DNA of 64,000 nt from an archaeon (GCA_020057405.1 JAGVFW010000008.1:3218-67217); one strand, 5' to 3'; counted from the stretch's first letter, positions 3,001-41,598 are shown. Program-made: numbers and translations. The notes: generated by a model not told the origin, from the letters alone.

Positions 3001-6000
3001 CAACTCGTTTTGAATTGCCCGCAGATGCCAAGGTGCGCAAGAATGATGACGGCAGCACCACAGTCCAGATGTCCGACGGCAGGCGAGTGCGCTTTTCTGC
3101 CGGAGCGACGGTGGCGACAACCGCGGTTACCGTGCCCCCTGAAACAGAATTCTACGCCGAGGGCACTGCGGCGACAACTGCAACTGACGGCTTCAAGTTC
3201 ACCCCGCCAGTTGGCCTTATTCTAGTACTCCCAGCCGGCGTGCCGGTTATTTCAAGAGGCGATTCAAGCGCGGCCATCATCGGAACCACTCAAGTACTCT
3301 TCCCCTCAACACTCGCGTTCTCACAGGATGCCGGCGGCAGGGCGGTGCGCGTGCCACCGGGAACTATCGTGCAGATAACGGCATTGCCGCAAGTGAGCCT
3401 CGAGTCGAACACGCTTGCAATCTTGCCCGCAAAGATAGTGTTCGACTTTAGCCGAAACGCCATTGTCCGCGAAAACGACGACGGTTCGTTCTCAGTCGAG
3501 TCTGCTGGCAATGCAATTGGCTTTAGCGCGCAATCACAGCACGCGCCCCAAGGGTCCGACGGCAGCGTGCAAGTCACTGTCCCTTCGGGCACCGGCGTGC
3601 TCTTCCCGACGGCGGTCTTTAGCGGCAGGGCAAACAATGGCTTTGAACTCCGCGTGCCCGCCTCACTCTCGATTGAAATTCCGTCCGACGTTGAAGTCGC
3701 AACTCGCGGCACGACAATTGCTGCATTCCTCCCCGACTATGACCTGCTGCTTCCTGCTGGAACGACTTTCAAGGCAAGCGCCGGCGGAAAGACTGCAGCT
3801 GTCGGGCCAAACGCAATTGTTTCATTCAAGTCAGTCACAGGCATTTCATTGACCGGCAACGCGTTTGCAAACCTGCCATTTGCCTTGAGGCTCGTGCTCC
3901 CAGGCGGGGCGCGCCTTGACGGTAGCGAAGTCGGAAAAACTGCGACCCTAGCATCGGGAGAGACAATCGGATTGCCACCGGATGCAACAGTAAGCGACGC
4001 CCAGCTTGACGGCACGCGCGTTACCACAGTGCCACCCTACTCACAAGTGTCGCTTCCAAAAAGTTTCTTCACTCCCGTTACCGGCGGCGGGTTCAACCTG
4101 AAGCCAGCCGTTCCCTATGCCCTTGGATTCCCTATCGGGACACGGCAAGTCGAGGCAGGCAACGACCTGCTAATGCTTTTGCCAGACTATGACTTGCGCG
4201 TGCCAAAGAACACGCGCCTTGCCCCCGACTCAGGCCTCCTCTTCACCACTCAGATGGCGGCAGGCACGCAAACGCGCGCCGCTCCCGCGCCCGAAATTTC
4301 AGTTGCCGACTTGGGCCGCGTAACTCTCCCATTTGACTTGACTGCCACGCTTCCCGCGGCCGCGCGGGTCAACGAGCGAAGCGACGGCATTGCAGTGCTC
4401 GTGCGCGACGGGCTGACGATCGGCTTTTCCGCACCTGCCGAGCTTTCGCACGACAACGGTTCGACAATAAACGCGCCGGCTGGTGCCGCAGTGCTTCTTC
4501 CGGCCTACTTGATTGAATCAACTCCTGACGGCAGCCTGAGGCTCACGCTGCCGATTGACGTTTCGCTGTCGTTTGACACTGGCGTGCAGCTCCAGCGCGG
4601 GCCTGCAGGCAACTCGTTTGTCTCCGACGACTACAAGCTTGACGCGGGTAGCGCAACGCGGGTTGACGTGAGTAAGGCGGGCGTGCTGCGCGCAATAGTC
4701 CCCGCCGGAACCGCGCTCACGCTAACCTCAACTGCAAACGCGATTGCCGCAGGCGACGAAGTCTCGATTCCCGCGCAACTGTCCCTGCAGTTGCCGGTTG
4801 ATGCCATCGTGCGGGCTCGGGCCGACGGCAGGCTCTACGTCGAGGCCAGGGGAATGCGCGCGCTCTTTGGCGCCGGCGCAACTGCCGATGCCGGAAAAAT
4901 AACTGTGCCTGAAAACACTCAAGTGATTTTCTCGCGCGGCATTGTCGGCCAACTCCGCAACGCTGGCCTTGCGCAAGGCCGCGACTTCAAGCTCACCATC
5001 CCGATTGCCTACGCACTCGCATTTCCTGCAGGTGCGGGGGCGCCCGTTGCGACAAAGCGCGGCACAACCGCAATTGCATTCCGCGGCCTCGTAATTGAGT
5101 TCCCGCCAACAGCGCAATCTTCCTCAGGCGATTCGGGCACGCTAGTGTCAATGACGGGCGGCAGTGCGACCAACTTCATCACTTGGATAAACGGCATTCC
5201 CGCATCCGAACTTGGCGGGATAATCGACGCGGCTGATGCGGCCTTAACGCCACGCGAGCGACTCGCCCTTGCTGCAAAGGACAACATTGCAGTGACCCTG
5301 CCGTTCCAGCTCGAGCTGCTCGTGCCCCCGTCGTTCTCAATGACAACTGCGGATGACACGGGCTCTGGGCCCGCAGTGTGGCTCTCAAGCCGGGTTGCAA
5401 TAGCCTTCGGGCCAACCTCGCAAGTTGCAGGCAGCGTGCCAAAGACAATAACCGCCCCCGCAGGCACCCAGCTCTCGCTTCCCGCATCTATGCTTTCACG
5501 CTCGCCCGACGGCGGCTACGCAATCACGATTCCATTCTCAACCGCGGTTCTCATCCCGGAGGACACCGAAGTAGTCAACGACAAGCAGACTTACGCACTG
5601 CTTTCAAACGCGCGCCAAGAGCTCGCCCTCCCAGCAGGCACGGCATTTATTCAAGTGCAGGACTTGCTTCGCGCCGACCTGCAGCCAAACACGCGCATTG
5701 AAGTCAACCCAATTGGCGCCGCGCAGCTTGACGGCCTGGTGCCCGTGCGCCTGCCCGTTGATGCGGAGCTACTGTTTGCAAGCGGCGTTCGCGCATTCAC
5801 TAGCGGTGCGAGCACGGTCGTGCGCCTGCCTGACGGCTCAACCGCACAATTCCCGGGAACAATTGACGCACAAACTGGCCCCGGCGGAGTGCGGGTGCTG
5901 CAGTGGACTGGCGGCACTGCGGCCATGCTGCCGCGGGCGGCAGTGACTTCGGACGCTAATGGCGGCACGCAATTCTCGCTTCCCATCGCGGCAAACGTCA

Positions 6001-40610: not shown

Positions 40611-41498
40611 CTAGTCAAGCGGCTCTTCGTGCACGAGAACTTCCCGCACTTGCGGCACTGCCTTGATGACCGCGTACTTCACTGCGCCGGAAATCCGGTG
40701 CGCCCGCCTTAACGACATGCGTTCAGGAAACTGCAGGTGGACGTCAACGTAAATGCCACCGGAATAAGAGCGGGCGCGAAGCTTGTGGAAGCTTAGGACG
40801 CCGTTTTGGCTCATGATTGCCGTCCGGATTTTCGAAATAACTTCATCGTCGGGACCGCCGTCGGTAAGCTCACGGACCGAGTTGGAGCCAATCACGTAGA
40901 CGATACGAATCATGAGGAGCGACACGATTACTGCCGCGATGGCGTCAAGGCGGTAAAGACCTAGGGACGAGCCGAAGAGGCCCAAGAGAACAACCGAGTT
41001 TTGGAGAATGTCCGAAGAGTAGTTGGCGGCTGTTGCCGAAAGGGCCGAACTACCGTACTCGCGAGCCTTTCGGGAGAGGTACCTTGACATCAAGACGTTG
41101 ACGATAATGGTGCAAACGAGAACCGCCAAAACAAGCGGCGTGATTAGAAGCGGCCTTGACTCAAAATAGCGCTCGACTGCCTCAAACAAGATGAAAAAGG
41201 CCGTGAGGAAAATTAAAGTAAGCTGCGCGAGGCCCGAGAGGGCGCCGTACTTCTTGTGGCCGTAAAAGTGGTTGTGGTCGGGCGGCTCCTGCGCCTTTTT
41301 CACGCCAAAGTACGCAAGCAACCCTCCCGCCAAGTCGAAAATGGAGTCAACAAGGACTGCCAAAACGCCGAGGCTGCCAGTCCAGATGACTACGAGAAGC
41401 TTGCTTGAGATAAGAAAAACGTTTGCGACCAGCACCAGTTTGGCCGCGCCCTCCTCGCCGTCGAAAAAACCCATGCAGGAAAAATACTCCGCTGGCAT
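40611..41498 (-). CDS. Cation diffusion facilitator (CDF) family metal transporter
   Basis: Six-TM N-terminal domain with D..FD and H/D-rich loops (HNHFYGHKKYG). C-terminal cytoplasmic domain (VLSFHKLRARSYSGGIYVDVHLQF). Met9 (41474) is an alternative leaderless start, about 25 nt after the TTTAAA immediately upstream of 41498. Confidence 0.85.
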   Translation of the reverse strand: MPAEYFSCMGFFDGEEGAAKLVLVANVFLISSKLLVVIWTGSLGVLAVLVDSIFDLAGGLLAYFGVKKAQEPPDHNHFYGHKKYGALSGLAQLTLIFLTAFFILFEAVERYFESRPLLITPLVLAVLVCTIIVNVLMSRYLSRKAREYGSSALSATAANYSSDILQNSVVLLGLFGSSLGLYRLDAIAAVIVSLLMIRIVYVIGSNSVRELTDGGPDDEVISKIRTAIMSQNGVLSFHKLRARSYSGGIYVDVHLQFPERMSLRRAHRISGAVKYAVIKAVPQVREVLVHEEPLD

Positions 41499-41506
41499 TT
41501 AAAGCA

Positions 41507-41524
41507 ATCCGCCCGAAGGCGGAT
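41507..41524 (-). other. Stable hairpin (7-bp stem, UUCG loop) between the sRNA candidate and the CDF gene
   Basis: Minus strand AUCCGCC-UUCG-GGCGGAU, followed by UGCUUUAAAUG (a TATA-like element and the CDF ATG). Confidence 0.5.
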
Positions 41525-41529
41525 GAACT

Positions 41530-41598
41530 TAAGTCAGACCGTCCGTCAATCGTCACAGCCCCGTAACGGGCTCCGAGTGTTGCATGATCATCACGGAA
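41530..41598 (-). ncRNA. Candidate archaeal C/D-box sRNA (2'-O-methylation guide)
   Basis: The minus strand reads cc-GUGAUGA(C)-ucaugcaacacu(12)-CGGA(D'-like)-15-nt hairpin spacer-GUGACGA(C'-like)-uugacggacggu(12)-CUGA(D). Both guides are exactly 12 nt. It lies in a 153-nt gap between two minus-strand genes. Weaknesses: the D' box is degenerate, the spacer is longer than usual, and the terminal stem is weak. Confidence 0.5.

Follow-up and report, generated by a model that had tools for sequence, protein, structure and literature searches.

A 61-nt candidate archaeal box C/D sRNA was recognized by sequence reading on the minus strand, at positions 41534-41594 of the window (the whole stretch of 64,000 nt analysed here), which belongs to a small, symbiotic archaeon of the Micrarchaeota (DPANN) with a genome of 1.22 Mb, 17 contigs and 56% G+C. 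One of its two guides is antisense to helix 34 of the organism's own 16S rRNA and the other to the decoding site, where it places an adenine opposite C1402 at the catalytic N+5 position. The locus is almost certainly a genuine C/D sRNA gene, and it was previously unannotated. On balance, the favoured reading is that of a dual-guide sRNA whose D′ arm would methylate position 1051 and whose D arm would bind the decoding-site strand without methylating it. The sRNA is probably expressed, as suggested by its conservation and by the RNA-seq detection of its Thermoproteales relatives.

The four boxes and the two guides of exactly 12 nt, already claimed in a preliminary description of this DNA, were recovered at the same minus-strand positions (Table 1), and the range given there, 41530-41598, takes in a few flanking bases on either side of the element. 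The D′-C′ spacer folds into a short hairpin, GCCCG-UUA-CGGGGC, with a free energy of -8.2 kcal/mol (RNAfold, spacer alone), and no terminal stem was found in the sRNA. The strict architecture of boxes and 12-nt guides occurred at only three loci in the 1.22-Mb genome, this sRNA among them, and the C/D sRNA repertoire of the genome appears very small; strict loci alone were used, since a relaxed census with a 9-of-10 target rule was too permissive, both control candidates having passed it. The Rfam search returned nothing at the gathering threshold and only weak generic C/D matches at the E-value threshold. The best model, sR2, scored 19.4 bits against a threshold of 42 (E = 0.017) in an end-to-end alignment that agreed mainly at the boxes, a sub-threshold score that says little on membership.

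The sRNA sits in a 153-nt intergenic gap, with both flanking genes on the same strand. Beginning 9 nt past box D and stopping 8 nt ahead of the cation-efflux ATG, a UUCG-capped hairpin lies between the two, and the region 41496-41533 was predicted to fold with -14.7 kcal/mol (RNAfold). The relatives examined showed no counterpart of this hairpin downstream of the D box. It may serve the sRNA as a terminator or 3′ end, or else belong to the 5′ part of the cation-efflux mRNA.

Table 1. The sRNA, its surroundings and the other strict C/D loci of the genome; positions refer to the window unless a contig is named.
Feature	Position	Strand	Sequence or remarks
Upstream neighbour	ends 41652	-	167-aa ORF; no Pfam match
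Box C	41594-41588	-	GUGAUGA (DNA GTGATGA); fits the RUGAUGA consensus; RTGATGA in orthologues L004-L006
D′ guide, 12 nt	41587-41576	-	UCAUGCAACACU (DNA TCATGCAACACT)
Box D′	41575-41572	-	CGGA; CGGA or CAGA in relatives, with the same spacing
D′-C′ spacer, 15 nt	41571-41557	-	GCCCGUUACGGGGCU (DNA GCCCGTTACGGGGCT)
Box C′	41556-41550	-	GUGACGA (DNA GTGACGA); NTGANGA in relatives
D guide, 12 nt	41549-41538	-	UUGACGGACGGU (DNA TTGACGGACGGT)
Box D	41537-41534	-	CUGA (DNA CTGA)
UUCG-capped 7-bp hairpin	41507-41524	-	AUCCGCC-UUCG-GGCGGAU, perfect stem
Downstream neighbour	ATG 41498	-	cation-efflux (CDF) transporter gene
Second strict C/D locus	G000:C14:8809-8871	+	spacer hairpin; guides 9-10/12 to tRNAs
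Third strict C/D locus	G000:C14:42021-42075	+	11/12 match to 23S own position 3022

Profile searches of the genome recovered fibrillarin (PF01269, 260.7 bits), a Nop5-domain protein (PF01798, 181.7 bits) and L7Ae (PF01248, 101.3 bits). The Nop5 gene (L154:376-2184, on G000:C14) is unlinked to the fibrillarin gene (C2:389-1051) and may encode up to 602 aa, its start codon being uncertain, with the Nop domain confined to residues 376-598. The protein presumably carries roughly 200 residues more ahead of the Nop domain than the usual archaeal Nop5, and this longer spacer domain might be related to the expanded sRNAs described below. As separate observations on the RNA genes, the 23S rRNA gene (G000:C11:135910-139650, L002) measures 3741 nt against a model of 2987 positions, which suggests that it holds one or more insertions or introns. 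Introns seem common among the tRNAs, several of which span 105-218 nt, and the tRNA-Cys called by ARAGORN (G000:C17:52830-53787) spans 958 nt and either contains an exceptionally long intron or was called wrongly.

The D guide was aligned with the organism's own 16S rRNA (G000:C11:140071-141592), for which E. coli numbering was obtained through a MAFFT alignment to rrsH. It formed 11 of 12 possible Watson-Crick pairs with own positions 1392-1403 (E. coli 1398-1409), the sole mismatch being an A:C at N+5 between A41542 and own C1396, which is C1402. The preliminary description had proposed both the decoding-site target and the lone mismatch opposite C1402 at N+5, and the organism's own 16S bore out the two proposals. 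It had also left open whether the base at 1402 is U or C; it is C in the own 16S and in 48 of 48 order-level matches from 45 genomes, on which ground co-variation of the guide with a U1402 rRNA was rejected. When the D guide was shuffled, 209 of 20,000 sequences reached 11/12 in 16S plus 23S (~1%) and 74 of 20,000 did so in 16S alone. No equal or better complement of this guide was found elsewhere in the genome, in 23S or in the 40 predicted tRNAs. The tRNA targets, whose best match was 9/12, were rejected, and a perfect antisense TTGACGGGCGGT at locus C6:161395, with no surrounding boxes and a coding-like aspect, was taken as chance.

The A:C mismatch costs about 7 kcal/mol (-15.7 kcal/mol for the D-guide duplex with A vs -22.9 with G), and the duplex is left close to the -17.2 kcal/mol of the D′ duplex. 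Despite its 11/12 pairs, the D arm presents an A:C at N+5, where the catalytic criterion calls for a Watson-Crick pair.

The other guide, referred to as the C-guide and left unplaced in the preliminary description, is the D′ guide and could be assigned to 16S helix 34, both guides now matching the organism's own rRNA. It pairs with own positions 1034-1045 (E. coli 1047-1058) through 11 Watson-Crick pairs and one G:U. Ten of the Watson-Crick pairs are contiguous, for a criterion of at least 9 bp with a paired N+5, and at N+5 A41580 forms a proper A-U pair with own U1038, which is E. coli position 1051. This position lies on the same helix 34 strand as C1054, three bases 5′ of it. Shuffles of the D′ guide reached 11/12 in 16S plus 23S in 199 of 20,000 cases (~1%) and in 16S alone in 67 of 20,000, the 16S-alone rate being about 0.35% for either guide. 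The D′ target sequence was unchanged in the relative G004. From this pairing, the D′ arm probably directs 2′-O-methylation at position 1051 (own U1038). In another relative of the same family (L158, G002:C21:15500-17300), the 300-420 nt upstream of the 16S C1402 site were not rRNA-like, which suggests an intron or insertion in that 16S gene where helix 34 is expected.

The absence of the element from relatives had been named beforehand as a ground against it, and it was in fact found to be kept in relatives. Orthologues that retain the two guides occur in three members of the same family (L004, L005 and L006). The D′ guide of L005 starts with C, by which the terminal G:U becomes G-C, and the spacers of the three orthologues differ in sequence and still fold (GCGC...GCGC and GGC-CGAAA-GCC stems). 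Synteny with the cation-efflux gene was not observed, tblastn giving no match at the relatives' loci, and the flanking genes were not conserved, which indicates that the sRNA has been kept independently of its surroundings.

Across the order and the phylum, the half formed by box C′, the D guide and box D recurs with many different partner guides. When 401 genomes of the phylum were searched with a pattern that left the N+5 base of the D guide free, the guide core GACGGACGG gave 75 matches in 71 genomes, and all 75 had A at N+5. In the same sequences, guide positions 1, 11 and 12, the unpaired neighbours, varied freely, and therefore the invariant A is under constraint. The A is the product of neither target co-variation nor drift, and its constraint equals that of the paired positions. 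The 16S 3′ tail is the antisense target of the partner arm in the majority of Micrarchaeota copies, with N+5 at ~1533; the family studied here has exchanged this 3′-tail partner for helix 34. Most copies also carry a D′-C′ hairpin, from 9 to about 72 nt long and as stable as -29 kcal/mol, and such a hairpin-expanded C′/D′ module is unusual among archaeal sRNAs. Such hairpins were seen in L042, L100, L115, L119, L126, L144 and others, and several of the long ones share a ccctttt...aaaaggg-type stem.

The guide is not evenly distributed. In three large families (f13, f14 and f19), the guide pattern was found in 1 of 253 genomes, and fibrillarin was present in 97 of the 98 sampled; these families have either lost the guide or altered it so far that the pattern no longer matches. 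The idea that the guide-less families lack the C/D machinery was rejected, fibrillarin being found in 150 of 151 genomes. The near-absence of the guide from three large families that possess fibrillarin indicates that the sRNA is not indispensable to the phylum. Separately, two MAGs binned or labelled as Micrarchaeota, L019 (G008:C120, a 2-kb contig) and L136 (JALWQZ010000066.1), showed a G version with short spacers, the guide of L019 reading UUGAUGGGCGGA and resembling I. hospitalis sR11. These G versions could result from mis-binning or a loose label, or could be a real exception.

Outside the phylum, species-representative genomes were scanned, and among the matches listed the guide, in an identical box frame, had G at N+5 in most of the other archaeal lineages, at least in Thermoplasmata/DHVE2/Aciduliprofundum, Korarchaeia (Methanodesulfokora), Nitrososphaerota, Undinarchaeota and several Thermoproteota. 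A guide G at N+5 makes a Watson-Crick pair with C1402, and these G-variant orthologues match 16S perfectly. The G-variant sRNAs measure about 48-50 nt, with a D′-C′ spacer of 2-4 nt in most copies. Bacterial matches to the guide had no C box and were attributed to chance.

The N+5 A was also found in a Thermoprotei MAG (L140), and in 120 Thermoprotei genomes the recurring form of the guide was GACGGACGGGCUGA. The A is therefore present in Micrarchaeota and in Thermoprotei, with G in several phyla between them. In six Thermoprotei genomes (G468, G526, G528, G529, G533 and G537), an A-type 14-mer of guide plus CTGA was noted beside a G-type one; the G-type ones may be chance, since a backwards-pattern control was frequently matched in this G+C-rich class (~15 matches) and isolated G matches there are unreliable. 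If these six G matches were true, the same organism would possess a catalytic C1402 guide in addition to a binding-only one. Another observation concerns the partner guide AAUUCCUUU, directed to 16S ~915 in the central pseudoknot region, which is common to L140, L085, L063 and L120, from different phyla. The family with a partner guide against ~E. coli 915 includes both G copies (L085 and L063) and an A copy (L140). The family may have begun with this combination of the C1402 guide and the ~915 partner guide; its conserved stretch is too short to support a tree.

C1402 touches the P-site codon, and bacteria and eukaryotes both modify it; the equivalent nucleotide is the target of yeast snR70 and human SNORD43. 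Whereas snR70, SNORD43 and RsmI/RsmH modify this nucleotide, the present guide lies on it with a mismatch expected to prevent modification. In E. coli, C1402 is ribose-methylated, the m4Cm being produced by RsmH and RsmI (PMC11551388). A gene of the RsmH type (PF01795) was not found in the genome, and the replacement of the guide's catalytic role by RsmH was rejected on this ground.

The closest known counterparts come from hyperthermophilic Thermoproteales, whereas the present host belongs to a DPANN lineage. In supplement 1 of Dennis et al. 2015 (PMC4644070), P. calidifontis sR25 reads ...GUGACUG ACGACGGACGGA CUGA and T. tenax sR135, detected with 35,958 reads, reads ...CGACGGACGGG CUGA, and the 16S alignment of the same paper labels the targets of Pca sR25 and T. 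tenax (T35) near 1355 and 1400. Both sRNAs have the identical D-guide core followed by one free base and CUGA, with A at N+5 and the same 16S strand and register, and both are, like the present sRNA, dual guides whose other arm is also directed to 16S. They differ in that arm, which contains GCGUUGGUG and targets helix 43 at ~1355 instead of helix 34 at 1051, and in their D′-C′ spacer, of 3-4 nt instead of a 15-nt hairpin. Mismatches at N+5 were reported for 16 of 262 double guides (Dennis 2015, PMC4644070), and Lui et al. 2018 (PMC6009581) counted sR25:C1368 among four N+5 mismatches that are conserved in Pyrobaculum. This C1368 of Pae would be the C1402 equivalent, as indicated by the sR25 guide sequence and the label near 1400. 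The preliminary description had called a mismatch at the target base odd; the mismatch is real and conserved, and was already published for Pyrobaculum sR25 (PMC6009581). Citing published work, Lui 2018 (PMC6009581) described the Watson-Crick pair at N+5 as essential for methylation, and proposed for such guides that the interaction is beneficial and the modification unneeded or harmful. In the literature searched, no 2′-O-methylation map for Pyrobaculum or Thermoproteus and no paper tying Micrarchaeota to C/D sRNAs were found.

Other archaeal sRNAs reach the same region with a different expected outcome. The D′ guide of Ignicoccus hospitalis sR11, CCGAUGGGCGGA-CUGA, has the same target strand and register in a C′/D or C/D′ framing, and was proposed to direct Cm1402 (PMC5389701); sR11 and the G-variant guides have G at N+5 and are expected to methylate, in contrast to the present guide with A. 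Nanoarchaeum equitans sR13, a dual guide that is likewise of DPANN origin, links the upper end of helix 44 (1405-1415) to the anti-Shine-Dalgarno tail (1531-1540); Seistrup et al. 2016 (PMC5389701) proposed for it an sRNA-timed checkpoint in the folding of the small subunit. Like most Micrarchaeota copies, whose arms target 1399-1407 and ~1533, sR13 combines a decoding-region arm with a 3′-tail arm, whereas the partner arm of the present sRNA lies on helix 34. Moreover, both arms of sR13 are Watson-Crick paired at N+5 and methylate (Am1408 and Am1534), unlike the mismatched D arm described here. N. equitans lacks KsgA/Dim1, whereas the present genome encodes it (PF00398, 166 bits), and for this reason a Nanoarchaeum-style role of the sRNA as a stand-in for a missing KsgA/Dim1 was rejected.

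In the proposed mechanism, the sRNA would assemble with L7Ae, Nop5 and fibrillarin, and the D′ guide would pair over 10-12 bp with the 5′ strand of helix 34 in 16S, where the Watson-Crick pair at N+5 would lead to 2′-O-methylation at 1051. The D guide would pair with the decoding-site strand 1399-1407, its conserved A facing C1402 at the catalytic N+5. The D arm would act as a placeholder or chaperone, holding the decoding-site strand and tethering it to helix 34 during small-subunit assembly. Since a Watson-Crick pair at N+5 is reported as required (PMC6009581), the D arm most likely binds without methylating; by this analogy, the evidence leans modestly towards a binding-only arm that would leave C1402 unmethylated by this guide, the blocking of methylation by a mismatch at N+5 being a rule established in other organisms. 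The binding-only model alone leaves the strict retention of A unexplained, as C or U would serve equally were the loss of methylation all that mattered. G-to-A is the likeliest single mutation, so that the recurrence of A is weak evidence and its retention is the stronger point.

This retention bears directly on a second possibility, that the D guide is still catalytic, the A:C being tolerated by fibrillarin-Nop5 as an A+:C wobble and C1402 being methylated, perhaps sub-stoichiometrically, like its bacterial and eukaryotic equivalents. Such an activity is considered rather unlikely. An A kept specifically in 75 of 75 copies is in line with it, as is the shape of the A:C, the mismatch nearest to a wobble pair, as are the ribose methylation of C1402 in E. 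coli (PMC11551388) and the fact that no RsmH-type gene was found in the genome. A further parallel is N. equitans, which has Cm1402 and for which no Watson-Crick guide was found (PMC5389701), so that methylation despite a mismatch, or by a stand-alone enzyme, may be envisaged. On the other hand, the corresponding guide has G in other phyla, and the canonical solution was therefore available.

It is also conceivable, although doubtful, that the invariant A is, rather than a sign of guide decay, a selected design in which the RNP clamps the strand and keeps C1402 in a non-Watson-Crick state, either for a base-modifying enzyme or as a non-catalytic checkpoint of P-site assembly. The A-opposite-C1402 design itself recurs, as read from the guides, in two or more archaeal lineages that are only remotely related. 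A related proposal, that C1402 or a neighbour is left unpaired within the clamped duplex for another enzyme, as snR4, snR45 and SNORD13 do for Kre33/NAT10, is very unlikely. Antisense guidance of base acetylation of the SNORD13 type is a known precedent (PMC9670809), C1402 or an adjacent nucleotide was deduced to carry a base modification in N. equitans and I. hospitalis (PMC5389701), and an invariant A points to a particular geometry more than to a mere loss of pairing. These points are countered by the single internal mismatch, which differs from the two flanking duplexes of SNORD13, and by the lack of a candidate enzyme, RsmH not having been found. The archaeal ac4C context is CCG, and C1402 falls outside it.

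A true D-guide target in some other RNA with U at N+5, such as the 23S GTPase-associated-centre strand GCCAUCCGUUAA, is highly improbable. At own position 1119, this 23S strand would offer an A-U at N+5, but its 9 Watson-Crick and 2 G:U pairs fall far short of the 11/12 on 16S. It was rejected as a target because the guide C that is invariant in all copies would face A next to N+5 there, and the same C pairs perfectly with G1401 of 16S. Furthermore, no RNA gene of the genome contains a perfect complement of the D guide, and the G-variant orthologues of other phyla match 16S perfectly. Finally, the notion that the element consists of chance box-like motifs in an intergenic spacer, with which the lack of an Rfam match above threshold would agree, is practically discounted by the match of both guides to 16S (each ~1% by shuffling), the rarity of the architecture in the genome (3 loci), its retention in dozens of genomes, at loci that are unrelated and lack common synteny, and the RNA-seq detection of T. 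tenax and P. calidifontis sRNAs with an identical guide core.

Both the kind of element and the N+5 mismatch were already published, and the advance is in this respect incremental. What is new here is the target of the second guide, the C at 16S 1402, the finding that A is invariant throughout the phylum whereas G prevails elsewhere, and the hairpin-expanded Micrarchaeota copies. The RNA genes of DPANN archaea are sparsely annotated, and the finding adds C/D sRNAs to them, this hairpin-expanded form included. Across Micrarchaeota copies, a guide would be clamped on the decoding strand and avoid precisely the pair reportedly needed for methylation. The natural contrast between A in Micrarchaeota and Thermoproteales and G in other phyla bears on whether an A:C blocks fibrillarin, and on selected non-catalytic roles, as chaperone or checkpoint, that C/D sRNAs may have at the decoding centre.
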